A stretch of 64,000 nucleotides of DNA from an uncultured Candidatus Saccharibacteria bacterium (lineage in GTDB: Bacteria > Patescibacteriota > Minisyncoccia > UBA6257 > JACOXY01), in NCBI GenBank assembly GCA_964357615.1, contig CAYHMC010000001.1, positions 2,602-66,601 of the forward strand. The letters run 5' to 3'. Under the pieces are notes generated by a model. The model worked only from the letters and a program-made list of their open reading frames with translations. It had not been told where the DNA came from and made no database searches. Shown piece after piece: positions 3,182 to 36,660 of the stretch. Position 1 is the stretch's first letter, and every line of letters starts with the position of its first letter. The translations under genes were made by a program, and so were the position numbers.

Positions 3182-3200
3182 CTGTTTCAATAAATAAAAC

Positions 3201-14356: not shown

Positions 14357-14379
14357 TTCTTAAAATTAAGACTTAAAAT

Positions 14380-15570: not shown

Positions 15571-15582
15571 TTTAAAATAAAA

Positions 15583-16812
15583 ATGATTTTACTAATTACT
15601 CTATCTTCTGCGATTATCGTAGTTGTTGGAATTATAAATATGGTGGAAGCTGCCTTATTTTCGTATCCACTTTATAAGGCAAGGTTAAATGTATCTCAAA
15701 ATAAATTTAATGCAAAAAGAGCCCTCGCAATTAGAGAAAATCCTTTTAAAACAATTGCAGCTGGTGTGATACTTTCTTCATCGGCTAATATTATTGGTAG
15801 CGTTATTGTGGGTTCTATAGCGGCTAGAGAATATGAAAGCATCGGAGTTGGAGTATTTGGAGCATTGCTTACATTTTTTACAATTACACTATCTGAAATT
15901 ATTCCTAAAAATATAGGTGAAAGATGGAGTCATGTTATATTTCCAATAGCCGCAACTCCACTTTATTGGCTTACCGTTATTCTTACTCCACTTGTATGGT
16001 TCTTTGAGACAATTTCTAAGCCATTTACTTTCGGCGTTTCACCATTTCTTACTTCTGAAGATGAGATTACTTTGCTTACAAAAGAAGGCGCCAAAGAAGG
16101 AACAATTGAGACACGCGAAGCAGAAATGATTCAGCGTGTTTTTAAGCTTAACGATGTTACAGCTGGAGATATGATGACCCCAAAACCATTTGTAAAGTTT
16201 ATTAATGGTGAAAAAACTATTCGTGAAATTAAAGATGATATATTTAAAATGGAGCACTCAAGAATTCCAGTTTATAAAGATGACACCAATCAGGTTACTG
16301 GTATTGTTCATCTTAAGGATTTGTTGAAAGCTATTGCGCTTGGAGATGTAGATAAAAAAGTTGTAACTTTGGCTCGCAAAGCCCTTACGGTATCTGACGC
16401 AAGAGTGGGAGATGATTTGTTAAATGATTTTCGTGAAAATAGATCGCATTTAGCATTGGTTATAAGTGAGTATGGAAACATTGTTGGCGTAGTTGGTCTT
16501 GAAGATGTCATAGAGGAACTTGTTGGTGAGATTATTGACGAGAAAGATGTGGTACCACAAACTATTAAGCGTATTTCGCGTAGCGAAGTCTTAGCTCATG
16601 GTCAAACAAAAATTTCTAATCTTAATCATTTTTTCAATCTAAACATACACTCAAAGAAAACATTGCATGGTTATTTATCGGAACAATTTGGCTATTTACC
16701 TAAGCAGGGTGAAAAAATTACTGCTGATGATTCAGATTTTCTGATTGAAGAAGTAATGGGTCATGAAATTACTAAAGTTCGCATTATTAAAAAAACTAAT
16801 CCTTTAAATTAA
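15583..16812 (+). CDS. CNNM/HlyC/CorC-family transporter (DUF21 TM domain, CBS pair and CorC_HlyC transporter-associated domain)
   Basis: The N-terminal region has 4 TM helices. The CBS pair includes GDMMTPKPFVKF and SRIPVYKDDTNQVTGIVHLKDLL. The C-terminal domain is ...GYLPKQGEKITADDSDFLIEEVMGHEITKVRI. Confidence 0.8.
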   Translation: MILLITLSSAIIVVVGIINMVEAALFSYPLYKARLNVSQNKFNAKRALAIRENPFKTIAAGVILSSSANIIGSVIVGSIAAREYESIGVGVFGALLTFFTITLSEIIPKNIGERWSHVIFPIAATPLYWLTVILTPLVWFFETISKPFTFGVSPFLTSEDEITLLTKEGAKEGTIETREAEMIQRVFKLNDVTAGDMMTPKPFVKFINGEKTIREIKDDIFKMEHSRIPVYKDDTNQVTGIVHLKDLLKAIALGDVDKKVVTLARKALTVSDARVGDDLLNDFRENRSHLALVISEYGNIVGVVGLEDVIEELVGEIIDEKDVVPQTIKRISRSEVLAHGQTKISNLNHFFNLNIHSKKTLHGYLSEQFGYLPKQGEKITADDSDFLIEEVMGHEITKVRIIKKTNPLN

Positions 16813-16833
16813 ATATTTAAAGCAAATTTAACT

Positions 16834-17181
16834 ATGAAAGAAAAAGATTTTGATTACGAAAGTAAGCCACCTGAATTTAGATATGAAATAAGTGATGCAA
16901 AATTGCAATCAATTCAAGCTGTAACTAAAAAATTTGAGATTGCATTAGAGTCAATGCATGAAAACTTATCTGAATTAAAAATAATATATAGCAGAAGCAA
17001 ATCGAAAAACGATAAAACTAAATTATCCGAAGAAATTACTAAATATGAAGAAGCAATAGAGACAAATAATAAAATTTTAAGAGAATTTTATAACGCAATA
17101 AATTATTGGGAAATTGAACTTGAAAAAGGCGCAACAGAAATATTGCTCAAATTTAAGATTGACGATATTTTGCCAAATTGA
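16834..17181 (+). CDS. Hypothetical coiled-coil protein
   Basis: ORF only; charged and helical. It may be the partner of the downstream small gene. Confidence 0.35.
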   Translation: MKEKDFDYESKPPEFRYEISDAKLQSIQAVTKKFEIALESMHENLSELKIIYSRSKSKNDKTKLSEEITKYEEAIETNNKILREFYNAINYWEIELEKGATEILLKFKIDDILPN

Positions 17182-17191
17182 AACTGCTATT

Positions 17192-17542
17192 ATGTTGCCA
17201 AAGTATTATTTTACAAAACACGCATTATACAAAATGAAATTTTATCGTTTGTCAGGACAAATGATTAAAGGAGTTATGGCAAGGCCAAAACGCACCGAAG
17301 AGGGTATTGCGCCAAAGACCGTCGTGTATATGAAACAGGTTGGCAACAAAACTAAACCTCATGAAATTTGGGTTATGGTTGCCAAAAGTGAAATGAAGAG
17401 AGAAAAAGATAATGTGTTTGAAAAAAATAGATTCAAATCAAGTATAATAAATATTGTTTCGGCTTGGAGATACCCAGGGGTTACCAAACCAGGCAAAGCA
17501 CTTCCAAAGGAAATTCTTCGTGAAATTGCAGAAGTTGAATAA
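17192..17542 (+). CDS. Hypothetical small protein, possibly DUF4258-like (toxin-like). Start trimmed to the internal Met after the upstream stop.
   Basis: FTKHALYKMKFYRLSGQMIKGVMARP resembles the hTKHAxERMxERGIsxxxI N-terminal signature of DUF4258. This is a weak, by-eye match. Confidence 0.3.
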   Translation: MLPKYYFTKHALYKMKFYRLSGQMIKGVMARPKRTEEGIAPKTVVYMKQVGNKTKPHEIWVMVAKSEMKREKDNVFEKNRFKSSIINIVSAWRYPGVTKPGKALPKEILREIAEVE

Positions 17543-17579
17543 TCTTTTGATTTTCAACTTATATAAGTCAGCTTCTTTG

Positions 17580-17605
17580 TTGCTTATATTTAGCTGTGGT
17601 ACAAT
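17580..17605 (+). promoter_or_regulatory. Possible extended -10 promoter (TGgTACAAT) upstream of pepN
   Basis: ttgcttatatttagctgtggtacaat. The spacer to the -35-like TTGCTT is only 14 nt, so the call relies on the extended -10. Confidence 0.3.
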
Positions 17606-17646
17606 GTAATCTTGCTTTAATTTTTGGTTAGAGGGCAAGAATTAAT

Positions 17647-20247
17647 ATGGTAAAAAAACTACTGGAACAATTATTTCTCCCAAACAACATAAAGCCTCTG
17701 GTTTATAAAATTACATTAACTCCAGATTTAGAAAGTCACACTTTTGATGGAAAAATAAATATCGCTTTAAATATATTAGAGGCAACTAATTGTATTATTT
17801 TGCATGCAAAAGATTTAAAAATAAAAAGTGTTTTTCTCGATATTGCTGGAAAACAGATTATCCCAAGTGAAATTATTCTCGACAAAGAAAATGAAAAACT
17901 AGCATTAATTTTTAGCGAAGATTTAAAACCCGGAGAAACATACCTTAATATTTTATATTCTGGTATATTAAACGACCAAATGTCAGGATTCTATAGAAGT
18001 ACTTATATAGTTGAAGGGGAAAATCGAATGATGGCAGTTACACAATTTGAAGATACTTCGGCTAGAATGGCGTTTCCGTGTTTTGATGAACCAAATATAA
18101 AAGCAAGATTTAAAGTAGAATTAATAGTTCCTAAAAATCTTGATGCATTATCAAATACTAAAATAGAAAAAGTAGTCTCAAATGGTTCGAGTAAAACAGT
18201 AACTTTTGAGGAAACGCCAATAATATCAACATATATATTAGCGTTTTGTGTTGGCGAGTTTGAATGCATTGAATCACTTGAACGAAAAGGGATGCCTAGG
18301 ATAAATGTTTATACAACCTCAAATAAAAAAGAACTTGGTCGCTTTGCCCTAGGGGTAGCAGAATCAATAATTGTAAGATGTAGCGAATATTTTGATCATC
18401 CCTACATGGGTACAAAGCTCGATCTTATTGCCATTCCTGATTTTGCCGCTGGAGCAATGGAAAATCTTGGTCTTATAACTTTTAGAGAAAGTGCAATTTT
18501 AATTGATGAGAAAAATTCTTCCAGAAGCGCCAAGCAAAATGTTGCTATAACTGTGGCGCATGAAATTGTTCATATGTGGTTTGGAAATCTTGTAACAATG
18601 AATTGGTGGGAAGAGCTTTGGTTGAATGAATCTTTCGCAACAGTCATGTCATATTATTTTGTAAATGAACTTTTTCCAGAATGGAATGCTTGGAATAAAT
18701 TTATGGTTTACGAATATTCTTCTGCATTAAACGATGATGCACTGCGTTCAACTCACTCAATTCAAATGCCAATTAAAGCAAAACATGACATTGGTCAAAA
18801 TTTTGACACTATAAGTTATGAGAAAGGAGGTTCTGTGCTTAGAATGATAAAGGGTTATCTTGGCGACGATATTTTTATGGCTGGGCTTCAGCTTTATATT
18901 TCACGCCATGCATACGGAAATGCTAAAACTAAAGATTTGTGGCAAGCGCTAGAAGATGCATCGGGTAAGCCAGTGCGCAAAATTATGGAAAGTTGGATTT
19001 CTCAGCCCGGATACCCATTACTTGAAATTTCAGAAAAAAATGAGAATGAAGTTGTCGTAAGGCAACATAGATTTTTATCAAGTGGTGAACCATTACAAGA
19101 GGAAGAAGATAATCAAATTTGGCTAATAGAAACCAATTATATAAATAGCGAAAAAAAAATTGAAGCAATAAAGTTAGAAAAAAAAGAGGAAATTGTTTCT
19201 ATATCCAAAAAAAATCAATGGGTTAAAATTAATAATCATCAGCTTGGTTTTTTTCGGGTTAAATATCCCGAAGAATTTTTAAATAAGCTAAAATCTGGAG
19301 TAGCAAAAAAAGAAATTTCTTCTATCGATAGAATGGGTATTGCTGATGACCTTTATGCGCTAACTAGAGCAGGATTTATTCCGGCAACACAATTTCTATC
19401 ATTTTTGGAATCTTATCAGAATGAAAACGAATATATTGTGTGGGCGAGTATTATTCAAAGCTTAAGTGAACTTGAAATACTTTTTGAGCATGATAAAAAA
19501 GCAACAGAAATATATCATATATTCGCTAGAAGTATAATTAAAAATATTGCAAAAAAAATAGGATGGGATGAGAAAAATAGTGAAAGTGATGACGATAAGT
19601 TTCTTAGGCCAATAGTGCTTGGCGCATATGGTCATTATGGCCATATAGAGACCATTACAAGGTCACGCGAATACTTTAGAGCATATTGTAGTGATGGGGA
19701 GGCAGTTAATCCAGATTTAAGGAATATGGTCTGTCGTATAGCTGCTAAACATGGAAATGAAGAAGACCATGACATTGTGCTTAATAGATATCGTCACGAA
19801 ACACATCCAGAAGAAAAATTAAGATTTCTTAGAACTTTAGGTGGTTTTCCTCATGACCATCTTGTTAAAAAAACATTGGAATTTGGTTTGGGCGGAGAAG
19901 TTAAATCGCAAGACCTGACTTCAATAATATATTCCACTGCGTTAAATGATAATCACGAAGCAGCAAAGTATACATGGTCATTTATAAAAAAGAATTGGGA
20001 TGAAATTCACAAGCGCCTTGGTCAAAGCATTGTTCTTTTAGAGCATACCGTAAAAGGGAGTGCGCATAGTTTAAATAGTCACGAAGAGGCGTTCGATTTT
20101 AAGAAATTTTTTGAAGCAAATCCAACTCCAAAAATTAGTAAAGCAATTTCGCAAACTTTGGAAATTATTAGCTCTCGCGCAAATTGGATTTCTCGCGATA
20201 GAGATAGCGCAACAAAATGGCTTCTAGACTGGTACAAGATGAAATAA
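17647..20247 (+). CDS. pepN: Aminopeptidase N, M1 family zinc metallopeptidase
   Basis: The GAMENLG exopeptidase motif and HEIVHMWFGNLVT-x18-E (HExxH plus distal Glu) are present. Length 866 aa. Confidence 0.92.
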   Translation: MVKKLLEQLFLPNNIKPLVYKITLTPDLESHTFDGKINIALNILEATNCIILHAKDLKIKSVFLDIAGKQIIPSEIILDKENEKLALIFSEDLKPGETYLNILYSGILNDQMSGFYRSTYIVEGENRMMAVTQFEDTSARMAFPCFDEPNIKARFKVELIVPKNLDALSNTKIEKVVSNGSSKTVTFEETPIISTYILAFCVGEFECIESLERKGMPRINVYTTSNKKELGRFALGVAESIIVRCSEYFDHPYMGTKLDLIAIPDFAAGAMENLGLITFRESAILIDEKNSSRSAKQNVAITVAHEIVHMWFGNLVTMNWWEELWLNESFATVMSYYFVNELFPEWNAWNKFMVYEYSSALNDDALRSTHSIQMPIKAKHDIGQNFDTISYEKGGSVLRMIKGYLGDDIFMAGLQLYISRHAYGNAKTKDLWQALEDASGKPVRKIMESWISQPGYPLLEISEKNENEVVVRQHRFLSSGEPLQEEEDNQIWLIETNYINSEKKIEAIKLEKKEEIVSISKKNQWVKINNHQLGFFRVKYPEEFLNKLKSGVAKKEISSIDRMGIADDLYALTRAGFIPATQFLSFLESYQNENEYIVWASIIQSLSELEILFEHDKKATEIYHIFARSIIKNIAKKIGWDEKNSESDDDKFLRPIVLGAYGHYGHIETITRSREYFRAYCSDGEAVNPDLRNMVCRIAAKHGNEEDHDIVLNRYRHETHPEEKLRFLRTLGGFPHDHLVKKTLEFGLGGEVKSQDLTSIIYSTALNDNHEAAKYTWSFIKKNWDEIHKRLGQSIVLLEHTVKGSAHSLNSHEEAFDFKKFFEANPTPKISKAISQTLEIISSRANWISRDRDSATKWLLDWYKMK

Positions 20248-22691: not shown

Positions 22692-23234
22692 ATGTTAAAA
22701 CTTTTCACCAAAATACTAAAAACTCCTAGAAATACGATATCTATAGATGAAATTAATAATGAGCATGCGGAAGTGTTGGCAGTCGGTCAGAAAATACATG
22801 AAAAAGTAAAGCGTTTATTTAGAGGCTCTCTTGCTATTAGGCAAGTAGATGCGGGATCAGACAATGCTTGTGAGCAGGAATTAGTAGCACTTTCCAATGC
22901 TTTTTACGATATAGAGCGTTTTGGAATACATTTTGTAGCGTCACCCAAACACGCGGACATGTTAATGGTGACTGGCCCAGTAACTAGAAATATGGCTGAA
23001 GCTCTAAAGAGAGCATACGATGCAACACCAGATCCAAAGATTATCGTAGCTCTAGGAGACGATGCGATAGATGGGGGAATTTTTAAATCATCTTATGCGG
23101 TTCTAGATGGCGTTAAAGAAGTAATCCCAGTAGACTACAGTATTCCTGGTGACCCACCCACACCAAAGGTAATTCTCAATCATCTTTTGAAAATATTAGA
23201 AGTTATTGATGAGAAGTCATTAAAGTCAAAGTAA
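22692..23234 (+). CDS. NuoB/HycG-like small-subunit homolog of group-4 [NiFe] hydrogenase / complex I. It is degenerate, with 3 of 4 FeS-cluster Cys ligands replaced.
   Basis: The backbone ...FGIHFVASPKHADMLMVTGPVTRNM...DPKIIVALG..IPVDYSIPG.PP aligns with NuoB/HycG. At the ligand positions it reads DAGSDNACEQE, GDDAIDGG and PGDPP, where canonical sequences have C(G)xC..C, GxC..GG and GCPP. Confidence 0.75.
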   Translation: MLKLFTKILKTPRNTISIDEINNEHAEVLAVGQKIHEKVKRLFRGSLAIRQVDAGSDNACEQELVALSNAFYDIERFGIHFVASPKHADMLMVTGPVTRNMAEALKRAYDATPDPKIIVALGDDAIDGGIFKSSYAVLDGVKEVIPVDYSIPGDPPTPKVILNHLLKILEVIDEKSLKSK

Positions 23235-23235
23235 C

Positions 23236-25281
23236 ATGCTAGAAATATTTGCTTCATCACTTAGTTTTTTCGTTCTCCTATTCTTATTTTCCATTGGCGC
23301 AATTGGCTCTTTGGTTTTACGAAAAAATGATTGGATGGCAAATGGCTGGAGTAGTTTATTTGCAATTTCAGGTTCTATTTGGGGATTACTTTTATCAATT
23401 TCAATTTTTATAATGGGATCAGGAAAATCAATCTCACTTGGAAGATTTTCTTACCCGCTTCTAAATATTTCGTTTAATATAGATTTACTCTCAGTATTTT
23501 TTATATTTCTAATTTCCTTAATTACACTTTTCTGTTCAATATATGGAATTGGATATGTAAGACATTATTATAAAAAATATAACCTTGGTGTTCTAGGATT
23601 TTTTTACAACCTATTTATATTAGGCATGTACTTGGTTGTGACTGCGAGTAACGGATTACTTTTTTTAATTGCGTGGGAAGTTATGGCTCTAGCATCATAT
23701 TTTCTAGTAATTTATGACAGCAATGACCAAGAAAATATTAAAGCAGGATTCCTATATTTAGTAATGACTCATATTGGAACTGTCTTTATTACTATTTCAT
23801 TTTTGATGCTTTATAAATTTACTGGTTCATTTGATTTTGAAGCAATTAAAATTGGTTTGCCGTTTGTTCCACTTTACGCTAAAAATATTGTTTTTATTTT
23901 AGCTGTGCTTGGATTTGGAATGAAAGCCGGAATAATACCTTTGCATGTTTGGTTGCCCAAAGCTCATCCTGCCGCACCCTCCCATGTTTCTGGGCTGATG
24001 TCAGGCGTAATGATAAAAACTGGCATTTATATGATGATTAGAATGTTTATGGATATCCTCCAGCCAATTCCAGAATGGTGGGGATTTACATTAATGATAA
24101 TTGGTTCCGTTACAGCATTACTCGGAGTTCTTTATGCATTGGCTGAAAATGATATCAAAAGACTTCTAGCTTACTCCAGCATTGAAAATGTAGGTATTAT
24201 TTTGCTTGGATTGGGTAGCTCGCTTTCGTTTTATTCATTGGGCATGCATTCACTCGCGCTTCTTGGTTTAGTTGCGGCGCTATTCCACACTTTAAATCAC
24301 GCTATATTTAAGTCTCTTTTATTTTTGGGAGCAGGCTCTGTTATTTCGGAAACACATACTAGAAATATGGAAAACTATGGTGGACTTATAAAATACATGC
24401 CACAAACCGCATTATTTTTCTTAGTAGGTTCAATGGCTATATCATCTTTACCACCTCTTAATGGATTTTTTAGTGAGTGGATGACATTCCAAGCCATTTT
24501 TCAAGGAATAGCAACTCTGGGTATTTCTACAAGATGGGTATTTATTATTGCCGGAAGCTCACTTGCATTTACGGGTGGCTTAGCGCTTGCGTGTTTTGTA
24601 AAGGCATTTGGAACTATATTTTTAGCTCGACCAAGAAGTAGTGAAGTTAATCACGCCAGAGAATCTTCTATTTATTTGAAGATGAGCATGGGTTCGCTTG
24701 CGATTTTATCGCTACTTTTCGGATTGCTCTCTGGATTTGTATCGGCGTCAATTGAAAAAGTTGGTCGTGGCCTAAGTATTTTCAATGAAGTATCTTCTTT
24801 TGTATCAGTTTCACCATTTGGAAATATATCTGCCGGAAATTTGCCTTCGATCTCGGGTCCGTTAATGTTTGGTTCTCTAGTTGTAATAATATTAGGTGTT
24901 TTATTTGCAACAAAATATTTTGTTTATGGAGAGCAAAAAATAAAAATTGGAAACACTTGGGATTGCGGAATTGATTTAACTCCAAGAATGGAAATTACCT
25001 CAGCGGGATTTGCACACTCAATCATTACAATATTTAAAGGGGTGCTAAAACCAAGCTTACAACATGATGTTGAGTATCATGATGCAGATATCAGATATTT
25101 ACCAGAAACGAGAACTGTTACATTGAGTGTGAGAGATGTTTATCATCAATATTTATACAGACCACTAAATATTTTGGTAGAAGTATTATCAAAGAAAGCC
25201 AAAAAAATTCAAAGCGGAAATATTAATGCTTATATTCTTTATATTTTCATTGCATTATTAGTGGCATTGTATTTTGTATAA
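23236..25281 (+). CDS. NuoL/MrpA/HyfB-like antiporter-type membrane subunit
   Basis: About 16 TM helices. GIIPLHVWLPKAHPAAPSHVSGLMSGVMIKTGIY is the conserved NuoL/HycC proton-pumping motif region. It starts 2 nt after the upstream gene. Confidence 0.8.
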   Translation: MLEIFASSLSFFVLLFLFSIGAIGSLVLRKNDWMANGWSSLFAISGSIWGLLLSISIFIMGSGKSISLGRFSYPLLNISFNIDLLSVFFIFLISLITLFCSIYGIGYVRHYYKKYNLGVLGFFYNLFILGMYLVVTASNGLLFLIAWEVMALASYFLVIYDSNDQENIKAGFLYLVMTHIGTVFITISFLMLYKFTGSFDFEAIKIGLPFVPLYAKNIVFILAVLGFGMKAGIIPLHVWLPKAHPAAPSHVSGLMSGVMIKTGIYMMIRMFMDILQPIPEWWGFTLMIIGSVTALLGVLYALAENDIKRLLAYSSIENVGIILLGLGSSLSFYSLGMHSLALLGLVAALFHTLNHAIFKSLLFLGAGSVISETHTRNMENYGGLIKYMPQTALFFLVGSMAISSLPPLNGFFSEWMTFQAIFQGIATLGISTRWVFIIAGSSLAFTGGLALACFVKAFGTIFLARPRSSEVNHARESSIYLKMSMGSLAILSLLFGLLSGFVSASIEKVGRGLSIFNEVSSFVSVSPFGNISAGNLPSISGPLMFGSLVVIILGVLFATKYFVYGEQKIKIGNTWDCGIDLTPRMEITSAGFAHSIITIFKGVLKPSLQHDVEYHDADIRYLPETRTVTLSVRDVYHQYLYRPLNILVEVLSKKAKKIQSGNINAYILYIFIALLVALYFV

Positions 25282-25287
25282 CAAATT

Positions 25288-26220
25288 ATGATTATTTCTA
25301 CTACATTAATTCAATTAATTGTTACACCAGCGCTTTCCCCATTGGGTATTGGACTGATTAGAAAGATAAAAGCCAAGCTTCAGAATAGACAAGGAGCAAG
25401 TATCACACAACCGTATAGAGATTTATGGAAGCTTTTTCATAAAGACGAAGTGATAAGCAAAGATGCATCTTGGATTTTTAAATACGCGCCATATTTTGTT
25501 TTTGCGACCACAATTGTAGTTGGTTCTTGTATTCCATATATAGATTCCTTAGGACGAAGTATTTTAGCTCCAGACATGTTGGTTATTATTTATACTTTAG
25601 CAACAGGCACATTTTTTTTAGCATTGGCTGGAATGGATACCGGCGGTGGTTTCGGTGGTTTTGGATCTAGTCGTGAAATGACTATATCAGCCCTAGCTGA
25701 AGGGGGACTCATATTTTCATTTTTAACTTTATCAATAATTAGCCACACTACAAATTTACTCGAAATGGCAAATGGAATAAATTTAGCGTACGGAAATTTT
25801 TCCTTACCAATATTATTGGCTTTTTCAGGATATTTTATTGTGTTGCTTGCAGAAACATCAAGATTTCCATTCGATAATCCAGCGACTCATTTGGAACTTA
25901 CAATGATTCACGAAGCTATGATACTAGAATATTCTGGTAAAAAATTAGCCCTAATGGAATGGTCTGCCGCTAATAAGCTTTTTATTTTTGCTGTATTGGG
26001 TTCTAATTTATTTTTTCCTTGGTGGATAGCTTCTGGTGCAAGTATTTATTCTATTATTCAAGAGGTTATTGTTTTATTTATCAAACTATTACTCATCTAT
26101 ACCTCGATTGCATTATTAGAATCAAGCATCGCAAAATTTAGATTTTTTAGATTGCCAGATTTATTAATTATTTCATACATTCTTAATATTATTGCGATAG
26201 GATTAATAAATTACATATGA
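25288..26220 (+). CDS. NuoH/HycD-like membrane subunit
   Basis: 310 aa with 8 TM helices. Size and N-terminal region (TQPYRDLWKLFHK) match HycD/NuoH. Confidence 0.65.
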   Translation: MIISTTLIQLIVTPALSPLGIGLIRKIKAKLQNRQGASITQPYRDLWKLFHKDEVISKDASWIFKYAPYFVFATTIVVGSCIPYIDSLGRSILAPDMLVIIYTLATGTFFLALAGMDTGGGFGGFGSSREMTISALAEGGLIFSFLTLSIISHTTNLLEMANGINLAYGNFSLPILLAFSGYFIVLLAETSRFPFDNPATHLELTMIHEAMILEYSGKKLALMEWSAANKLFIFAVLGSNLFFPWWIASGASIYSIIQEVIVLFIKLLLIYTSIALLESSIAKFRFFRLPDLLIISYILNIIAIGLINYI

Positions 26221-26864
26221 TGATAATTTCTGAACAACTTTTGTTAACTCTATTTTTTGCAACAATTGTTTATTTTCATGTTGCGAAAAAAAATTATGGC
26301 GTTGCGATAACATATGGTATCCAGTCTTTTATTGTTGTCTTGTTGTTATTAAATTCATTCATGGAAACAAATTCAGTATCTCTACTTTTGATTGCATTTA
26401 TAGTTTTGATAGTAAAAGTGATTTTAACTCCTCTATTTATTATACAGCTGATTAAAAAACATGAATTAAAATTTTTAGTTAGTAGTTATACAAATACACC
26501 AATAACTCTTATCGTGGTTGCGATGCTTACCGCAGTTGCACATCTAAATATTTTTAAATCCCTGGTTAATATTGTTCCAGGCAACCAATCATTATTATTA
26601 CTAGCGCTATCGTCATTACTCATATCTTTATTTTTAATTGTAAACCGTAAGGGCGCATCTTCGCAGATTATTGGGATACTTTCGCTCGAAAACAGTATTG
26701 TGGTTTTTGCATTTTTTGCAGGCTTAGAGCAAGCAACCGCGCTTCAGATAGGCATTATATTTGATCTTTCTGTTTGGATAATAACGGCAACCGTTTTTAT
26801 GTCTATGATATATAGACATTTTGGTTCGCTCGATGTTACAGAAATGAAAAATTTAAAAGATTAA
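26217..26864 (+). CDS. HyfE-like small membrane subunit of hydrogenase-4-type complexes
   Basis: 215 aa with ~6-7 TM helices, the same size as E. coli HyfE. It sits between the NuoH-like and NuoN-like genes and overlaps the upstream gene by 4 nt. Confidence 0.5.
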   Translation: MMIISEQLLLTLFFATIVYFHVAKKNYGVAITYGIQSFIVVLLLLNSFMETNSVSLLLIAFIVLIVKVILTPLFIIQLIKKHELKFLVSSYTNTPITLIVVAMLTAVAHLNIFKSLVNIVPGNQSLLLLALSSLLISLFLIVNRKGASSQIIGILSLENSIVVFAFFAGLEQATALQIGIIFDLSVWIITATVFMSMIYRHFGSLDVTEMKNLKD

Positions 26865-26868
26865 AAAT

Positions 26869-28311
26869 ATGGAACTTACAATTATTTTAATATCAACATT
26901 AGCAACTGCTATCATTTGCTTAGCGTCAAGACAAAGATTAATTATTGAATTCGCGTCTGTTATTTCTGCTTTTGTCACATTATTTGAATCTACACTTGTT
27001 GCGTTAAAAGTTTCTTCATTCGGGACATACACTCCTTATAAATTTATAACAATTGATTCATTGGGGGCAATCGTTATGCTTATCATTTCTCTTGTTGGGT
27101 CTGCAGCGGTGATGTATTCGGTTGCCTATCTTAGAGAAGAAACAAAAAAACAAATTATTGGATTCACTCGGGTAAAACAGTATTTCGTATTGCTAAATCT
27201 TTTTTTAGCCGCAATGTTTTTAGCTGTCGCATCAAATAATCCCATTCTTACTTGGATTTCAATTGAAGCCACCACACTTTCAACAGCTTTCTTAATTAGT
27301 TTTTATAATAAACCAACATCACTAGAAGCAGCGTGGAAGTATTTGGTAATTAATTCTGTTGGCTTACTTTTGGGATTTTTTGGAACTTTACTTTATTTTA
27401 CTTCCTTTAAGTTGGTTGGCGAAGCGAATACAATTTCGTGGAATACCTTACTTTTGAATGCTGGTTATCTTGATCCAATGATTGCAAAAATAGCATTTGT
27501 TTTTGTACTTATAGGTTATGGTACAAAAATTGGTTTTGCTCCTATGCACACATGGCTTCCAGACGCTCACAGCAAGGCGCCTGCGCCAATTAGCGCGTTA
27601 CTCTCTGGAGTGTTGCTTAATGTTGCCTTTATTGCAGTTTTGCGGTTTAAATTAGTTACTGATGCGGCTGTTGGAATTGATTTTTCTAGAAACTTATTAA
27701 TTATTTTTGGTCTGCTTTCAATATTTGTAGCTTCGCTTATAATTTTCACGCAAAAGAATTACAAACGTATGCTGGCTTACTCAAGCATAGAGAATATGGG
27801 AATTATCGCGCTTGGTTTTGGTTTCGGAGGATTGGGAAGTGTCGCTGCTTTGCTTCATATGATCTATCATTCTTTACTTAAGTCTTCATTGTTTTTTTCT
27901 GCAGGAAACATATTTCTTAAATATAGTTCAACAAAAATTGATAAAATTAAGGGAACAATGAAAGCTTTACCAATCACTGCGGTACTATTTCTTATGGGAT
28001 TTTTCGCGATAACTGGTACGCCACCATTTGGTGTTTTTCTCACTAAAATATATATTTTATCAGCAGGCATGAGTGCACATCCAATAGTAACCGTTATTTC
28101 TTTTGTGCTTATGTCTTTGGTATTTGTAGGATTTTTTCAGAAAGCTGCAGCGATGACATTTGGTGAAAAACCACAAGGTATTGATTCTGGAGAAAATAAT
28201 GTTTGGCTTATTATTCCTTCGATGGCATTTATAACAATTGTAGTTTGTTTAAGTTTTTATATCCCACCATTTTTAATCAATTTATTAAACAGCACAGCTT
28301 CACATTACTAA
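26869..28311 (+). CDS. NuoN/NuoM/HyfF-like antiporter-type membrane subunit
   Basis: GFAPMHTWLPDAHSKAPAPISALLSGVLLNVAFIAVLRF; about 14 TM helices. Confidence 0.8.
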   Translation: MELTIILISTLATAIICLASRQRLIIEFASVISAFVTLFESTLVALKVSSFGTYTPYKFITIDSLGAIVMLIISLVGSAAVMYSVAYLREETKKQIIGFTRVKQYFVLLNLFLAAMFLAVASNNPILTWISIEATTLSTAFLISFYNKPTSLEAAWKYLVINSVGLLLGFFGTLLYFTSFKLVGEANTISWNTLLLNAGYLDPMIAKIAFVFVLIGYGTKIGFAPMHTWLPDAHSKAPAPISALLSGVLLNVAFIAVLRFKLVTDAAVGIDFSRNLLIIFGLLSIFVASLIIFTQKNYKRMLAYSSIENMGIIALGFGFGGLGSVAALLHMIYHSLLKSSLFFSAGNIFLKYSSTKIDKIKGTMKALPITAVLFLMGFFAITGTPPFGVFLTKIYILSAGMSAHPIVTVISFVLMSLVFVGFFQKAAAMTFGEKPQGIDSGENNVWLIIPSMAFITIVVCLSFYIPPFLINLLNSTASHY

Positions 28312-28312
28312 T

Positions 28313-29884
28313 ATGCAAAAGGAAAAAATTCAAAAATATATACCAGTAAATTCGAAAGCAGAATTTCTTAAAAATTCAGTACAATTTGAGGTTGAGTCAT
28401 TGGAAATATTAAAAATAGTGTCAAACTTGAAACACGAGCATAACTTAAGTTTAAAGCTAGTCACTGCTACGGATGAACAAAAAGAGCTAGGATGTTTTAG
28501 GATTTGGTACATTTTTGGAGTGCCCGATGAAGATGCTTTTGTTATTCCATATATTACGGTTAAGGATGCAAATGAATTTCCATCTATTACATCAATTTGC
28601 GGTGAGGCTATGGGGTATGAAATGAAGATTAGAACATTTTTTGGACTAAAACCAATTGGACACCCAGATTTTAGACAGACCATCCTGCATGAAAATTGGC
28701 CTGAAAATATACATCCACTTAGAAATGACTTCAAATGGGATAAGAGGCCAGAATTAGCACATGGGACATATAAGTTCCAAAAAGTTAATGGTGAGGGTAT
28801 TTATGAAATTCCAGTTGGACCAATACATGCTGGCATTATTGAACCTGGACACTTTAGATTTAGCGTTGCTGGTGAGAGGATTATGCTTTTAGAACCACGC
28901 CTAGGTTTTGTCCATAAAGGAAGTGAAAAGCTTTTTGAAATTCTTCCGATAGATCAAAAAATAAAGTTATCGGAAAAAATTTCTGGCGATAGCTCATTTA
29001 GTCATTCATTGGCATTTTGTGAGGCATTGGAGCAATTGAGTGACACTATAGTATCAAGTCGAGCAAAATATTTGAGAGTTATATTTGCAGAACTAGAAAG
29101 ACTCGCAAATCATTTTGGAGATATTGGTGCAATTATGATAGATACTGGTTTTAATTTTGGCGGAAGTAATGGGTCACGATTGCGCGAGATAATAATGCAG
29201 ATTAATGAGCGTCTTACTGGTAGCAGGTTCTTGCGTGGCGTAAATAAAATTGGCGGTGTTTCAAAAGATTTAAATAATGAAGAAAAGTCTCTTTTATCCT
29301 CTGATTTGGATAGAATACTAAAAGATTTTGGTGAAGTTATAAATGTTGCAGAAAATAGCGTGTCATTATTAAACAGATTAAAGGGGACTGGAGTCATAGC
29401 AAAAGAAGTTGCACAATTGAATGGCGTGATGGGGGTTGCGGGACGTGCTACTGGAATTGTTAGTGATGCAAGAATTGATTATAAATATGCAGCATATGGT
29501 GAAATTACTCCATTTGATATTGCGGTTGAGAATGACGGGGATGTATTTGCAAGATTTAATGTGCGCATTAAAGAAGTTCGCACATCGCATAAAATTATAA
29601 AAAATGCGTTGAAGAATTTACCTGAAGGCTCTATTAGAAGCGATGAGATGAATTCTGAATTTAAAGCGAATTCTCTCGCGATTAGTATTGTTGAGGGTTG
29701 GCGAGGAGAAATTGTTTACTTCGTAACAACCGATTCACATGGGAATATAAGTAGAGTCGTGCCTCGTGATCCGTCACAAATGAATTGGTCTGTACTTAAA
29801 GATGCTGGTTTTGATAATGTTGTACCAGATTTTCCATTAATAAATAAAAGCTTTAACTTATCATACTCTGGAAACGATTTATAA
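28313..29884 (+). CDS. Fused NuoC-NuoD / HycE-like large-subunit homolog of group-4 [NiFe] hydrogenase. All four Ni-Fe-binding Cys are absent.
   Basis: The N-terminal ~150 aa are NuoC-like (YEMKIRTFFGLKPIGHPDFRQTIL). Next comes VGPIHAGIIEPGHFRFSVAGE, which is HycE-like rather than NuoD-like. At the L1 position it reads KISGDSSFSHS where canonical sequences have RxCGxCxxxH. The C-terminus reads DFPLINKSFNLSYSGNDL where canonical sequences have DAPLIxxSLDPCxSCTDR. Confidence 0.8.
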   Translation: MQKEKIQKYIPVNSKAEFLKNSVQFEVESLEILKIVSNLKHEHNLSLKLVTATDEQKELGCFRIWYIFGVPDEDAFVIPYITVKDANEFPSITSICGEAMGYEMKIRTFFGLKPIGHPDFRQTILHENWPENIHPLRNDFKWDKRPELAHGTYKFQKVNGEGIYEIPVGPIHAGIIEPGHFRFSVAGERIMLLEPRLGFVHKGSEKLFEILPIDQKIKLSEKISGDSSFSHSLAFCEALEQLSDTIVSSRAKYLRVIFAELERLANHFGDIGAIMIDTGFNFGGSNGSRLREIIMQINERLTGSRFLRGVNKIGGVSKDLNNEEKSLLSSDLDRILKDFGEVINVAENSVSLLNRLKGTGVIAKEVAQLNGVMGVAGRATGIVSDARIDYKYAAYGEITPFDIAVENDGDVFARFNVRIKEVRTSHKIIKNALKNLPEGSIRSDEMNSEFKANSLAISIVEGWRGEIVYFVTTDSHGNISRVVPRDPSQMNWSVLKDAGFDNVVPDFPLINKSFNLSYSGNDL

Positions 29885-30370: not shown

Positions 30371-32033
<1,663 letters not shown>

Positions 32034-32094
32034 TTATTTCAATAAACGACTTTGTATTGTTTTTCATCATATATTTATAAAATGCGATCGCGGC

Positions 32095-32119
32095 TTCGTA
32101 CGGGATCATCCCGTACGAA
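32095..32119. promoter_or_regulatory. Perfect 12-1-12 palindrome (TTCGTACGGGAT-c-ATCCCGTACGAA) inside the atpG-atpD intergenic gap; a candidate operator or RNA hairpin
   Basis: It is flanked by related copies: tcatcccgaacgaa at 31986-31999 and tacgggatca at ~32218-32230. It is also flanked by the palindromes agatcgcgatct (32002-32013) and gcgatcgc (32083-32090). Confidence 0.5.
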
Positions 32120-32225
32120 ATAGGACGCGAACATTTTTTATTATCTACATTGTTTACTAATTATTATTAAGCTTTTATTAATCATTGTCATTATCATATA
32201 TGCGTGTCCGCTATTTCATACGGGA

Positions 32226-33155
32226 TCATGTGTTTGAATTTACTCCGGCAGATATTTCAGATAACTCTTGAGTAATAGCTGCTTGACGAGATTTATTAAA
32301 AATAAGTTGTAAATTATCTTTTAAGTCTGCGGCATTGTCTGACGCGCTCTTCATTGCTACCATTCTTGCTGAATGTTCTGAAGCATTAGATTCGAGTATT
32401 AAGTGATATATTACCATTTCTACTAGGTGTTTGGTTAAATCATTTAAAAGTTTCTGCGCTTCTTCTTTTGATGATGGCTCTGTAATATATTCAAAATGGT
32501 CGCTTAAAATTGATTTTGAATCATTGGCTTCTGAAAAACGACCATATTCTGGCACAAGTTCTTTAATATCTTCTTCAATTTTTTCAAAACTAATGGGAAG
32601 TAATTCACGAATCAAGACATCTTGACGAAGAGTTGTTTTAAAATGTGTGCTAATGGTTATAACTTTTGACCATTTACCACTCAAGAAACCATCAATAACA
32701 AAGTCAGCAAAATCTTGTGTGTGTTGTGGTGTGGCATAATCTCCAAACTTAGTAAACGATTTTTCTGTTCTTAAATTTTTGCGAACCAAATAATCTTCAG
32801 ATTTTTTACCTACTGCCGCATAAAGATATTTGTCAGAATCATCGGTAAAACTTTTCTCAAATTTTCTAAGTACGTTGCTGTTTAGTGATCCCGCGAGCCC
32901 TTTGTCTGCTGAAATAAGAATCACTAATGTTTTTCCGGACTCGCCTGACTCTACCATAAGAGCTGATTTGTGAGGAGAACGTTTTGAAATTTCACGCAAA
33001 ATTTCCATACCTGCAATTGCATATGGTCTGGAATTTAGCGCTAAAACCTGCGCTTTGCGCATTTTGTTGCTCGCAACCATTTCCATCGCCTTAGTAATTT
33101 GCTCGGTATTCCCAACTGATTTTATTCTTCTTTTAATTGATTGAGTAGATTCCAT
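32226..33155 (-). CDS. atpG: F-type ATP synthase gamma subunit
   Basis: 309 aa; the N-terminal IKRRIKSVGNTEQITKAMEMVA and C-terminal ...ITQELSEI match gamma. Confidence 0.88.
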   Translation of the reverse strand: MESTQSIKRRIKSVGNTEQITKAMEMVASNKMRKAQVLALNSRPYAIAGMEILREISKRSPHKSALMVESGESGKTLVILISADKGLAGSLNSNVLRKFEKSFTDDSDKYLYAAVGKKSEDYLVRKNLRTEKSFTKFGDYATPQHTQDFADFVIDGFLSGKWSKVITISTHFKTTLRQDVLIRELLPISFEKIEEDIKELVPEYGRFSEANDSKSILSDHFEYITEPSSKEEAQKLLNDLTKHLVEMVIYHLILESNASEHSARMVAMKSASDNAADLKDNLQLIFNKSRQAAITQELSEISAGVNSNT

Positions 33156-34678
33156 TATAGTGTGTTCTTAAAATTTTGAATTGCCAATTTTAATTTCTCT
33201 TCAATTTCTGTTGTCAGTTCTTTGGTGGTTCTTATGGGTTCTAATAAGTCGACGTCATGTCGCCCTCGCATATATTCCAAATATTTATTTTCAATATTTT
33301 TAAGATTTTGTACTGCCACATCATCAAAATAACCATTAATTGTTGCATAAAACACTAGCACCTGACTTTCAAATGGAAGAGGAGATGCATCATTCTGTTT
33401 CAATATTTCAGTTATCATTTGACCTCGTTTAATTTTATTTTTTGTCCCTTCGTCTAGATCTGATGCAAATTGAACAAATGCTTGTAATTCTCTAAACTGT
33501 GCCAATTCAAGACGAAGTTTACCAGAAACTTTTTTCATAGCTTTTGTTTGAGCTGAAGATCCTACGCGAGAAACAGAAAGTCCTGCGTTAATTGCTGGTC
33601 TAATACCCTGATAGAAAAGATCTGCCTCTAAATAAATTTGACCATCTGTAATAGAAATAACGTTGGTTGGAACATAGGCAGATACATCGCTTAGTTGAGT
33701 CTCTATTATTGGAAGCGCTGTTAAGGAGCCACCCCCTTTTTCTTTGCTTAATTTTGCAGAGCGTTCAAGAAGCCTAGAGTGGAGATAAAAAATATCTCCA
33801 GGATAAGCTTCTCTACCAGGAGTGCGTCGCAAGAGTAAAGAAATTTGTCTGTATGCAGTGGCGTGCTTTGAAAGGTCGTCATAGATAATCAATGAATCTT
33901 GACCTTGATCCATAAAATATTCTCCAATTGCACACCCCGCATATGGCGCTAAATACCAAAAAGATGCAGGGGAAGAAGCACCTGCCACAACTACAATTGT
34001 GTATTTCATGGCACCGGCCGCTTCAAGCTCTGATATTATTTTTGCAACATTTGATTCTTTTTGACCAATTGCAACATAAATACAAATCGGAATTTTCTGT
34101 CCTTTCTCATTTTGCTGATTAACAATCGTATCAATAGCTATTGCTGTTTTGCCAGTTTGGCGGTCGCCAATAATTAGCTCGCGTTGGCCTCGTCCTATTG
34201 GAATCATAGAATCTATTGCTTTAATTCCAGTATGAATTGGTGATTTTACTGACTCACGTTCAAGAACTGAAGGGGCCCGCTTTTCAATTGGGTAATTGGC
34301 TGGCTTAGCGCCTTTCCATATATCTCCTTTGCCATCAATAGGCTCTCCAAGGGGGTTAATAACCCTTCCAATGAGTTCTGGTCCCACTTTAATACTTAAC
34401 ACCTCTCCAGTGCTCTTTACCTCATCTCCGGCTTTAATTTTCTTAAAATCACCAAGAACAATTGCTCCAATTGATGATTCTTCTAAATTTAACGCCACAG
34501 CTTTAATGGACCCATCCTTGGTTTCGATGCTTAACATTTCTTGGCTCATTGCATTACTTAACCCCTGAATTTTAACTACGCCATCGGCAACCTCGATAAT
34601 ATTACCTATTTTAGAAATTAAAACATCACTCTTTGCGTTTTCAATTTCCCTTTTGAGTTTTTCAATTATTTCAAACAT
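33155..34678 (-). CDS. atpA: F-type ATP synthase alpha subunit
   Basis: [15 protein letters not shown] (P-loop) and ...[14 protein letters not shown]; 507 aa. Confidence 0.93.
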
Positions 34679-35040
34679 TTTAGTCTGTTCTGCAATGAGC
34701 TATCGATAGACAGCTCATCGTTAATTGTTATTTTTATACCAGCAATAAGTTTCTTGTTTATTTTAAAAGTCACATCACTATTTTTATTAAAAGAATTTTT
34801 AACTTTATCTATGAGTGGCTTACTTAATTCTCGAGCCGTTTCAATTTTAATTATTGAAATATTTTCCTTTGAGGCGATATTTTTTTTTATTTCATTGAAT
34901 ATTTTATTTGAATCTTTAATTGCCCCATGCTTTTTTAAGACAGAAGTAAAATTATTACACAGTTCATTATATTGGCTTTCTGGTGTTTTGAGTAACACTT
35001 CGCAAAATGCTTTAGCGAAAATTGTTGGTGAATATTGCAT
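34666..35040 (-). CDS. atpH: F-type ATP synthase delta (OSCP) subunit, short form
   Basis: It lies between atpF and atpA. The N-terminal [11 protein letters not shown] resembles the delta N-terminal YAKALFE motif. At 124 aa it is shorter than the usual ~180 aa. Confidence 0.6.
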
Positions 35041-35549
35041 TAGGATATATTGTTTTTACGCAAATTAGTGACGGTTTGCTCAATTAGTTTTTCATCTATG
35101 GCGCTAGGGGATAGCAGAACGGTTTTCTCTATTGCTAATTTAACAAATTCTAAAGCTTCACTGTAAAATTTAGCTTTTTCTTTTAATATTTCTTCGTTGC
35201 CTCTTGCCACAGCTCCCAAAAGCAATTCATCGCCTTTTTTGCGAGCAACTTCCAATAATTCGACTTCTTGTGCTTTTGTTTTTATTTGCATTGCTCCCAG
35301 TATATTAAGCGATTCTTTTTCAGCTTCGGACAGCTTTTCCGCCTTTATTCTCTCTGACGCTTCAAGTTCTTTTTTAGCAAGTTCCGCATCTTCTATACCT
35401 TTTTGTATTTTATTTCTCCTTAATTCAAGAATGCTAAGTAGTGGTTTGTAAACTGTAAATCGTAATATTATTAGTACAATCAAAAAATTAATTGCTTGAA
35501 CAGCAAGTAATTTGAAGTTAACACCCAATTGTGAAAATAATTCAGACAT
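35040..35549 (-). CDS. atpF: F-type ATP synthase subunit b
   Basis: A single N-terminal TM helix followed by a long charged coiled coil (KAEKLSEAEKES...); assigned partly by position. Confidence 0.75.
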   Translation of the reverse strand: MSELFSQLGVNFKLLAVQAINFLIVLIILRFTVYKPLLSILELRRNKIQKGIEDAELAKKELEASERIKAEKLSEAEKESLNILGAMQIKTKAQEVELLEVARKKGDELLLGAVARGNEEILKEKAKFYSEALEFVKLAIEKTVLLSPSAIDEKLIEQTVTNLRKNNIS

Positions 35550-35564
35550 ACCTTAACTTACTTA

Positions 35565-35792
35565 TTATACGAATTTTAATATAAGCGCTACGACTAATGC
35601 GTAAATAGCGATTGCTTCAGCAAAAGCGATAGCTAATATCATTGCTGTTTGAACTTTTGGTGCTGCTTCTGGGTTTCTTCCAATTGCTTCTGCTCCTCTT
35701 GAACCAATAAGTCCAATCGCTATAGCTGGGCCAATAGTACCAAGTGCCATTATAATTCCAATCGCTAACATTTTCATTGTTTCTGCGTCCAT
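35565..35792 (-). CDS. atpE: F-type ATP synthase subunit c
   Basis: 75 aa hairpin protein with IGRNPE in the loop and [12 protein letters not shown] carrying the conserved carboxylate. No Na+-type Q/ES/T residues are present, so it is probably H+-coupled. Confidence 0.9.
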
Positions 35793-35861
35793 CCCGTTAG
35801 AGGTCCCGTTTCGTAGGCTGTTCTGATAGTTTTATTATCGAGTACATACCTCTAATGGGAT
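35791..35861. promoter_or_regulatory. Imperfect inverted repeat (atcccgttagaggt ... acctctaatgggat) in the atpB-atpE intergenic region
   Basis: The arms match at 13 of 14 positions and are separated by ~43 nt. It shares the ATCCCGT k-mer with the atpG-atpD palindrome. Confidence 0.35.
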
Positions 35862-35916
35862 CCATTTTATTTTTAATAATTTTAATTAATATTAATGTTT
35901 CGACCAAGTTTTAATT

Positions 35917-36660
35917 TCAGTGACTTTCTTCAATCGTTGCGATTGTTATAAATACCAGCGTTAGCATTGCAAATACGAATGCCTGAATAAATCCAACGAA
36001 TATCTCAAGCAGTATAAATGGTAGCGGTGCTATAAGCGGCAGAAGGAAAACAATAATAATTAGTAATACTTCTCCAGCAAATACATTACCAAACAACCTA
36101 AATGAGAACGAGATTATTTTAGCAATTTCTGAGATTAATTCAAGTATTCCAATAAAAAACCCAATCGGACTTTTAAAATTTATAAATTTTTTAAAATGAG
36201 AAATCGCACCAATTGCACTAATTCCAAAAATATTAACTCCAATCACTGCGATAAGAGCAATGGCAATAGTAAAGTTTAAGTCCGCTGCTGGAGCTCGGAA
36301 TAGTGGAATTAGTTGGGTTTCTTCTCCGTGAGTCTCGTAGAGGCCAATAGATCCAATTCCAGGGAGTAGTCCAAGCCAGTTTGAAATAAGAACAAAAAAG
36401 AAAATTGTTGCGACCAGCGGGAAGTATTTTTTAGTTTTTTCTTCATCATTTATGACGGAGTTACATAGCGAAAGCATTCCCTCAAAAGCAAACTCTAAGA
36501 AATTTTGAAATTTACCTGGAATTAAAGTAAGTCTATTTTTAAAAAATATTCCTAAAACAATAAGAATAGCTGAAGTTATAAATGCTAAAGCTACTGAATT
36601 TGTTATATCCAAGCCCCAAAAATAGAATAAATGCTCTGCTTTGATTGAAATTTCTGGCAT
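35917..36660 (-). CDS. atpB: F-type ATP synthase subunit a
   Basis: 247 aa with 5-6 TM helices. The C-terminal region ...RLFGNVFAGEVLL contains the conserved R in the penultimate helix. Confidence 0.88.
   Translation of the reverse strand: MPEISIKAEHLFYFWGLDITNSVALAFITSAILIVLGIFFKNRLTLIPGKFQNFLEFAFEGMLSLCNSVINDEEKTKKYFPLVATIFFFVLISNWLGLLPGIGSIGLYETHGEETQLIPLFRAPAADLNFTIAIALIAVIGVNIFGISAIGAISHFKKFINFKSPIGFFIGILELISEIAKIISFSFRLFGNVFAGEVLLIIIVFLLPLIAPLPFILLEIFVGFIQAFVFAMLTLVFITIATIEESH

Follow-up and report, generated by a model that had tools for sequence, protein, structure and literature searches.

The DNA analysed here is a 64-kb window (64,000 nucleotides of contig CAYHMC010000001.1, from an uncultured Candidatus Saccharibacteria bacterium) that originates from the 0.1-µm fraction of Hainich groundwater. 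It contains a tightly packed six-gene operon (22692-29884) of the Ehr ("energy-converting hydrogenase-related") family, with the gene of the small subunit (EhrS) first, that of the large subunit (EhrL) last and those of four membrane subunits between them. The six products are homologues of HyfB, C, E, F, G and I (NCBIfam). Both peripheral subunits have lost the sets of cysteines that hold the metal centers of their relatives, and the operon recurs next to the genes of the F1Fo ATP synthase. The features of the locus are collected in Table 1. Scans for promoters and terminators around the Ehr operon gave signals not above shuffled expectation.

Table 1 Genes and motif positions discussed in the text, in window coordinates (the codon coordinates within EhrS were computed from the start of its reading frame)
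Feature	Position	Strand	Basis or remark
EhrS, NuoB/HycG/MbhJ-like small subunit, 180 aa	22692..23234	+	Pfam Oxidored_q6, 2.2e-26
EhrS codons D57-N58-A59-C60, former C-x-x-C of the proximal cluster	22860..22871	+	aligned to MbhJ GSCNGC and HycG CGGCNGC
EhrS codon D124, former third cluster Cys (G-x-C)	23061..23063	+	GDDA vs GaC in alignment
EhrS codon D154, former fourth cluster Cys (GCPP to GDPP)	23151..23153	+	alignment
HyfB/HycC/NuoL-like antiporter-type subunit, 681 aa	23236..25281	+	Pfam Proton_antipo_M, 5.9e-62
HyfC/HycD/NuoH-like membrane subunit, 310 aa	25288..26220	+	Pfam NADHdh, 1.3e-42
HyfE-like (NuoK-type) membrane subunit, 215 aa	26217..26864	+	NCBIfam hydrogenase-4 membrane subunit, 4.5e-16
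HyfF/NuoN-M-like antiporter-type subunit, 480 aa	26869..28311	+	Pfam Proton_antipo_M, 7.1e-53
EhrL, NuoC-like plus HycE-like large subunit without NiFe ligands, 523 aa	28313..29884	+	ATG start, Pfam, PDB alignment
EhrL L1 motif remnant S224-G225-D226-S227 (tct ggc gat agc)	28982..28993	+	codons read from DNA
EhrL L2 motif remnant N515-L-S517-Y-S-G520 (aac tta tca tac tct gga)	29855..29872	+	codons read from DNA
Pro_CA_2 "putative carbonic anhydrase", 112 aa	29949-30287	-	Pfam, 1.3e-7; between atpC and the end of the Ehr operon
F1Fo ATP synthase operon atpB-E-F-H-A-G-D-C	30371..36660	-	Pfam; convergent with the Ehr operon
ATP synthase c subunit	35565-35792	-	within the atp operon
Zinc-ribbon protein, 108 aa	36726-37052	-	immediately upstream of atpB
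PF06983 protein, 296 aa	53284-54174	-	two copies of the domain, 1.8e-72

The large subunit lacks all four ligands of the [NiFe] site

EhrL is the product of one open reading frame (ORF) with its stop codon at 29882-29884. The initial annotation of this ORF, made from the letters alone, described a NuoC-like domain joined to a HycE-like domain, and this description is confirmed. Pfam assigns residues 26-145 to Complex1_30kDa (NuoC-type, 6.5e-15) and residues 288-448 to Complex1_49kDa (NuoD/HycE-type, 2.4e-40). By HMMER the closest solved structure is HycE of the E. coli formate hydrogenlyase (7z0s_E, 1.4e-63), and T. thermophilus Nqo4 and P. furiosus MbhL (4.4e-38) are the next matches in the PDB. 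An AlphaFold2 (AF2) single-chain model of EhrL (predicted local distance difference test, pLDDT, 77.5; predicted template-modeling score, pTM, 0.82) is matched best in Foldseek by HycE, with a template-modeling score of 0.80, and then by the fused NuoCD subunits of E. coli and Aquifex complex I. A NuoC-like domain at the N-terminus is usual for large subunits of the HycE/HyfG type and does not make EhrL a special fusion.

Alignment with HycE sets the L1 motif vCGiCgF against iSGdSsF in EhrL, and the L2 motif DPCYSC against NLSYSG. All four [NiFe] cysteines are replaced, as had been noticed from the sequence: those of L1 by S224 and S227 (I-S-G-D-S), those of L2 by S517 and G520 (N-L-S-Y-S-G). 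The L1 codons had been read correctly as S-G-D-S, but were placed at 28981-28992, one base off; the reading of L2 as NLSYSG in place of DPCxSC stands at both the codon and the alignment level. The protein ends in SGNDL, three residues past the L2 position. EhrL contains three cysteines (C61, C96 and C236), none of them at a ligand position, and a misalignment therefore cannot restore the NiFe site. The alternative of such a site being formed by cysteines nearby is excluded, the HMMER alignments to HycE, MbhL and Nqo4 being concordant. Among the part of the window ORFs that was scanned, none holds a Hyp maturation domain.

The remainder of the fold signature is kept, as the initial annotation had stated: GPIHAGIIEPGHFRF (residues 169-183), RLGFVHKG (196-203) and FARFNVRIKE (412-421) are all present. 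Across 20 homologues from different phyla of the Candidate Phyla Radiation (CPR), with 63-72% identity to EhrL, mean column identity is 74%, and the stretches ISGDSSFSH, NLSYSGNDL and PDFPLINKSFNLSYSGNDL are invariant or nearly so. The first two of these are also kept in most of 117 EhrL representatives obtained by clustering at 50%.

A quinone-like cavity had been offered as a possible occupant of the former NiFe pocket. This suggestion fails at the residues that matter in Nqo4: in the gap-free HMMER alignment to 2fug_4 (offset 138), the equivalents of His38 and Tyr87 are Ile176 and Gly225, and a NuoD-like quinone reductase was rejected on this basis. The NCBIfam NuoD score of EhrL is 208, against a cut-off of 360. 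The accompanying idea that the loss of ligands arose apart from that in NuoD is supported, since the nearest relatives that still bear the cysteines are group-4 hydrogenases (CGxC...ELCYxC) and not NuoD.

EhrL is a member of the Ehr family

The identity of EhrL as an Ehr protein is secure. The literature places Ehr proteins near the group 4 (4f) hydrogenases and describes them as lacking CxxC motifs, with a function that is unknown (PMC6349859, PMC10284858, PMC10432482, PMC7894505). Jaffe et al. in 2020 described CPR large subunits of Ehr that lack the metal-binding cysteines and form a monophyletic clade, and concluded that these proteins are probably unable to interact with H2 (PMC7304191). 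A large subunit without these cysteines was therefore already known, and taken alone EhrL would come as no surprise to a hydrogenase specialist; the replacement is a family-wide signature of Ehr and no local oddity.

The protein database holds thousands of EhrL homologues. The best 120 share 62-72% identity with it and are nearly all about 520-530 aa long, and the named sources among them are Peregrinibacteria, Gracilibacteria, Magasanikbacteria, Paceibacterota and other CPR/Patescibacteria. Beyond the CPR, the Cys-less signature is found at 40-47% identity in Nitrospira, Rokubacteria, Acidobacteria, Verrucomicrobia, Thaumarchaeota, Methanomassiliicoccus and Firmicutes (80 genome loci). True NiFe relatives in the same scan, for example in Thermincola, Desulfotomaculum and the metagenome-assembled genome (MAG) of a member of the Myxococcales, read ICGACSLSH ... 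ELCYSCFDR. About 90 of the 117 full-length representatives are Cys-less and 20 have all four cysteines. The aspartate of S-G-D (Asp226 in EhrL) is almost universal in the Cys-less ones.

Large subunits were placed in a neighbor-joining (NJ) tree with 100 bootstraps. EhrL sits within the Cys-less assemblage, but the split between Ehr and NiFe sequences has a bootstrap value of only 10/100; a single ancient loss of the NiFe ligands, which the tree suggests, gains no support from that value. The loci whose small subunit lacks the Fe-S ligands, described below, form one group (71/100), and the main CPR group stands at 83/100. Operons of this CPR type also occur on contigs binned as Firestonebacteria, Fibrobacteria, Endomicrobiales, Thermoleophilia and Bdellovibrionales (loci L005, L007, L012, L013 and L015), which reflects either horizontal transfer out of the CPR or mis-binning.

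Some loci of the survey have an unusual arrangement. In Nitrospirota (L047 and L080, at about 10001-20000), two complete Ehr operons stand in tandem on one contig; the signatures of their large subunits differ (SGTSS... vs SGDT...) and both small subunits carry four cysteines. In a Methanomassiliicoccus MAG (L024), a Cys-less Ehr operon (SGDNS) adjoins a second, distant cluster of group-4 type, the large subunit of which has all four cysteines and the small subunit of which is 145 aa long. In the MAG labelled Fibrobacteria (L007), the large-subunit frame measures 852 aa and seems continuous with an upstream HyfF-like gene, which could be a fusion or an artefact of sequencing or ORF calling; a second, Cys-rich set of Hyf-like membrane genes follows 5 kb downstream (the coordinates in this locus are 3153-5711 and 10505-15708).

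The small subunit has lost the ligands of the proximal [4Fe-4S] cluster

Alignment of EhrS with MbhJ (6cfw_J) and HycG (7z0s_G) places aspartates at three of the four cysteine ligands of the proximal cluster: the first is D57, the third D124 and the fourth D154, and the second is retained as C60. This is the rule among its relatives. In the 121 closest homologues of EhrS the ligand pattern is DCDD (90 sequences), DCDN (23) or devoid of cysteine (8), and all 80 metagenome loci recovered with an EhrS have the same kinds of pattern, with at most one cysteine. Three more distant loci (L015, L059 and L065) present S/T-E-G-D at the cluster positions. D57 and D124 are nearly invariant among the EhrS homologues, and an additional aspartate, D139, is specific to the Fe-S-less clade. 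The other Ehr small subunits keep the four cysteines in 63 of 63 cases, and the NiFe relatives do likewise. Many of these Fe-S-containing Ehr small subunits are 240-350 aa in length with 8-15 cysteines, often in the arrangement CxxCxxCxxxC, an extension that looks like a fused ferredoxin-like domain.

A linked partner for electron transfer is missing as well. None of 12 CPR-type loci has a ferredoxin-like gene in the Ehr operon, a CxxCxxCxxxC motif is absent from all window ORFs of 50 aa or longer, and the cysteines of the membrane subunits number 0-4 and are unconserved. Judged by its sequences, the Fe-S-less subclade of Ehr cannot bind a NiFe center, a proximal cluster or clusters of the ferredoxin type. 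With no ligand set for either metal center and no ferredoxin-like subunit, an electron-transfer chain is not possible in this complex.

Could the complex still be a redox enzyme, one that receives electrons from an unlinked partner or a docking ferredoxin and that holds a non-canonical metal site of Asp/Cys (EhrS) or Asp/His/Glu (EhrL) type? We judge this improbable. In its favor, Geobacter has higher levels of its Ehr subunits on formate (PMC7894505). As all other Ehr keep the proximal cluster, many of them together with the fused ferredoxin-like domain, a redox function would be ancestral to the family, and the conserved acidic residues that replace the cysteines could, with the one cysteine, bind a mononuclear metal. 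These points are set against one or zero cysteines left at the four cluster sites across about 200 sequences, with S/T-E-G-D in the sister lineages, and against the lack of a ferredoxin-like ORF in operon and window, of any redox enzyme among the recurrent neighbors and of conserved cysteines in the membrane subunits. We know of no precedent for a [4Fe-4S] cluster held by one cysteine and three aspartates.

The operon is maintained under purifying selection

All six Ehr ORFs are full length in every locus that is sufficiently long. Against ten CPR orthologues, the nonsynonymous divergence (dN) of EhrL is 0.25-0.37 with saturated synonymous divergence (dS above 1.5 or not computable), which gives a dN/dS below about 0.2. 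EhrS is the most conserved subunit, at 65-82% identity, despite the loss of its cluster; the ATP synthase beta subunits of the same contigs share about 70% identity, a comparable value. Every Ehr subunit is under strong purifying selection, and this includes the peripheral arm. For EhrL such selection had been argued from its conserved fold signature, and the premature stops or frameshifts named then as the mark of a decaying gene occur in no locus examined. A pseudogene is excluded by the intact ORFs, their conservation and a dN well under dS.

The loss of catalytic metal ligands in two subunits is what one would also expect of a decaying relic of a hydrogenase operon, or of a purely structural, inactive remnant. 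Conservation effectively refutes this explanation, to which we give hardly any credence: the six ORFs are intact with dN far under dS, identity across the CPR phyla is 60-80% and so near that of the ATP synthase beta subunit, the homologues number in the thousands, and the replaced positions are themselves conserved.

The membrane subunits keep the residues of ion translocation

The four membrane subunits were compared among three classes, the Fe-S-less Ehr, the Fe-S-containing Ehr and the NiFe relatives, with positions read from alignments to 7z0s_C, 6cfw_H and 7z0s_D. The HyfB-like subunit (NCBIfam hydrogenase-4 subunit B, 1.4e-199; top PDB match HycC, 2e-77) retains the Glu of transmembrane helix 5 (TM5), the Lys of TM7 and of TM8, the His/Lys of TM11 and the Glu of TM12. 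In the HyfF-like subunit (NCBIfam hydrogenase-4 subunit F, 1.5e-131) the conserved set that remains is the Glu of TM5, the Lys of TM7, the His/Lys of TM11 and the Lys of TM12. Its TM8 position (residue 251) is Asn in all Ehr and NiFe relatives examined and Lys in NuoM/N and MbhH, and the TM12 residue (393) is Lys in the Fe-S-less clade and Glu in the Fe-S-containing Ehr and the NiFe relatives. The HyfC-like subunit (PDB match HycD, 4.6e-34) retains AETSRFPFD and HLELTMIHEAMILEYSG in all classes, as does the HyfE-like subunit its K67, R144 and E158. Residues of this kind carry protons in complex I, Mrp and MBH, and across the four membrane subunits they are equally conserved in the three classes.

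The Fe-S-less Ehr operons recur beside the F1Fo ATP synthase

In the window the Ehr operon converges with the ATP synthase operon, and in four other loci (L009, L014, L059 and L088) it comes after atpD-atpC in the same orientation. Of 19 Fe-S-less genome loci, 6 have ATP synthase genes at a distance of no more than 10 kb, compared with none of 68 other Ehr/NiFe loci (Fisher 5e-5). Among 44 non-redundant metagenome loci with at least 1 kb of upstream sequence, an atp operon is linked in 11: in eight of them atpA-G-D-C immediately precedes Ehr in the same orientation, separated from it by -3 to 185 nt, and in three more it is found elsewhere in the locus. The flanks of the Ehr operon are otherwise variable: the six families that recur most in a clustering of the flanking ORFs are all subunits of the ATP synthase, and no other neighbor of Ehr was present in more than five loci. 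The link extends to the divergent type of L059, the large subunit of which is 40% identical.

The c subunits of the linked operons all share one motif, without the Ser/Thr and Gln of Na+-binding c rings. A Na+-coupled ATP synthase was rejected as the partner on this motif, which is presumably of H+ type and gives no support for a Na+ cycle from the side of the ATP synthase. Immediately upstream of atpB in the window, where atpI-like genes often sit, the 108-aa zinc-ribbon protein has a predicted membrane segment.

Most Patescibacteria have no respiratory chain, and what their ATP synthase is for is unsettled (PMC11665869). Three traits set this clade apart from the Ehr described so far, namely the lost cluster of the small subunit, the lack of any ferredoxin-type domain and the linkage to atp; no report of them was found in open-access papers and preprints.

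A proposed function and its alternatives

The explanation that best accounts for the whole of these observations is that the cofactor-less, six-subunit Ehr is a redox-independent, proton-coupled ion translocator that partners the F1Fo ATP synthase. We hold it tentatively, with a confidence that falls a little short of even. The complex would act as a cation/proton exchanger of the Mrp kind, or as some other device that runs on the proton-motive force (PMF), in concert with an H+ F1Fo ATP synthase. The most economical version would be an exchanger powered by a PMF that the ATPase generates with ATP from fermentation. More speculatively, the peripheral arm might be kept as a gating or ion-binding module, in which D57, D124, D139 and D154 of EhrS and D226 of EhrL would bind cations or protons and so supply changes of charge; these would stand in for the changes that electrons supply in the redox-active relatives.

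Several points weigh against this explanation. The adjacency to atp is seen in only about 25-30% of loci, and since these loci are related by descent the linkage counts overstate their independence. The complex is without subunits of the MrpB/E/F/G type, the proposed Na+ path of Mrp and MBH, and it is not obvious why a plain antiporter should require a peripheral arm under such strong conservation. The H+ coupling of the linked c subunits is presumed from their motif. No residue pattern separating the large subunits of Fe-S-less from those of Fe-S-containing Ehr passed the thresholds; as EhrL is alike in both kinds, the conserved pocket may serve the same unknown chemistry in both. In the AF2 single-chain models (pLDDT 77.5 and 70.8), confidence is low precisely in the loops that once bound the metals. 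The negative result for ferredoxins covers the operon and the 64-kb window, and an unlinked partner may lie elsewhere in the genome. Finally, the mechanism, including the ion that is moved, is one that we infer from sequence comparison.

Some of these points would suit another explanation better, namely that the former active-site chamber handles a substrate or carries out a non-redox chemistry driven by the PMF, with the membrane arm as its motor. CO2/bicarbonate interconversion, as in DabAB or the CupA-NDH-1 modules, is one example; another is a membrane or solute ligand that is taken up or extracted by way of the old cavity of gas or quinone type. The loops lining the pocket (GPIHAGIIEPGHFRF, ISGDSSFSH and PDFPLINKSFNLSYSGNDL) are the most conserved parts of EhrL, Asp226 was gained and fixed across Ehr, the peripheral arm is conserved at least as much as the membrane arm, and linkage to an ATP synthase suits a consumer of PMF. 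In the window, moreover, the small Pro_CA_2 gene lies between the Ehr and atp operons, and its product holds an H-E-T-C-G stretch reminiscent of the HxxCG motif of beta-carbonic anhydrases. This gene stands beside the operon only in the contigs of this organism and in no other loci, it is without a match in NCBIfam or the PDB, and it was rejected as a conserved partner. A Zn-type ligand set is not evident in the complex, nor is there a candidate substrate. We regard the chamber explanation as unlikely, though it keeps appreciable weight because MrpB/E/F/G are missing, the arm is over-conserved and EhrL is alike in both kinds of Ehr.

Returning to the ion translocator, a broader statement of it is possible, about which we are slightly more doubtful still. 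A machine of the complex-I/hydrogenase type without any redox cofactor would have been repurposed in the CPR to serve the H+ F1Fo ATP synthase as a dedicated partner, with a peripheral arm that acts as a non-redox coupling module and has acidic residues at the old ligand sites. It would convert the proton gradient made by the ATPase into another ion gradient or a substrate flux, or harvest a non-redox gradient into PMF for ATP synthesis. If this is true, the complex would be the first member of the complex-I superfamily whose homologue of the Q module functions without electrons, and it would explain in concrete terms why an ATP synthase is retained by organisms that have no respiratory chain. 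The peripheral arm of complex-I-type machines is thought to bring electrons next to the membrane arm; a widespread and conserved version without cofactors is a natural experiment on how the arm couples to translocation without redox. The Fe-S-less Ehr is also a testable candidate for what the ATP synthase of Patescibacteria works with in their bioenergetics, and a first functional handle on the Ehr complexes, whose role is unknown in every organism.

Other genes of the window

Many genes of the window encode glycosyltransferases or large proteins that are secreted or at the surface (PA14, CAP, M23, PhoD-like). The two domains of the PF06983 protein bear the Pfam name "3-demethylubiquinone-9 3-methyltransferase", which would point to the synthesis of quinones, compounds that are not expected in this organism; the name may not apply. 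ARAGORN found no tRNA or tmRNA genes in the 64 kb.

Comparison with known systems

The operon was compared with EhrA-S of Geobacter sulfurreducens, with the Ehr of Nitrospira, ammonia-oxidising archaea and Margulisbacteria, and with the CPR clade of Jaffe et al. 2020. It has in common with other Ehr a group-4-type large subunit without the CxxC of L1 and L2 (signature S/A-G-D-x ... N-L-S-Y-x-G), encoded together with a NuoB-like small subunit and with NuoH-like and antiporter-like subunits. What sets this clade apart is a small subunit that lacks three or four of the four cluster cysteines and the ferredoxin-like extension, the position of the small-subunit gene at the start of the operon, and the atp operon as a recurrent neighbor, which is seen in this clade only.

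The E. coli Hyf complex and formate hydrogenlyase (7Z0S) provide the top matches for the large, small, HyfB-like and HyfC-like subunits and share the NuoC-like N-terminus of the large subunit. Unlike them, the Ehr complex has no NiFe ligands, no proximal cluster, none of the ferredoxins HyfA, HyfH, HycB and HycF, no HyfD and no formate dehydrogenase. By its residues it is not a group 4 [NiFe]-hydrogenase, as both the four-cysteine set of L1/L2 and the small-subunit cluster are missing. MBS/Mbx of Pyrococcus furiosus (6U8Y), to which the large, small and membrane subunits are distantly matched, likewise has a degenerate NiFe site. The Fe-S clusters are retained in MBS, where the proximal one serves in catalysis, whereas no Fe-S cluster can be bound in this Ehr clade.

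With NuoCD and NuoB of complex I, the Ehr complex shares a hydrogenase-derived fold minus the NiFe site, and a fused C-D subunit is also present in E. coli and Aquifex. The difference is that NuoB keeps the ligands of cluster N2 (CCxxE ... GxC ... GCPP) and EhrS does not, and that homologues of NuoA, E, F, G and I are missing. The Mrp antiporters are redox-independent and are the proposed functional analogue. Their MrpA- and MrpD-type subunits, with TM5 Glu, TM7 Lys and TM12 Lys/Glu, have counterparts in the HyfB-like and HyfF-like subunits of Ehr. Mrp is without subunits of the NuoB, NuoD and NuoH types, and the small subunits MrpB, C, E, F and G are not found in the Ehr operon, where the HyfE/NuoK-like gene is the only small membrane gene. 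The Ehr complex is therefore not a member of the Mrp family, but by analogy it may work like one.

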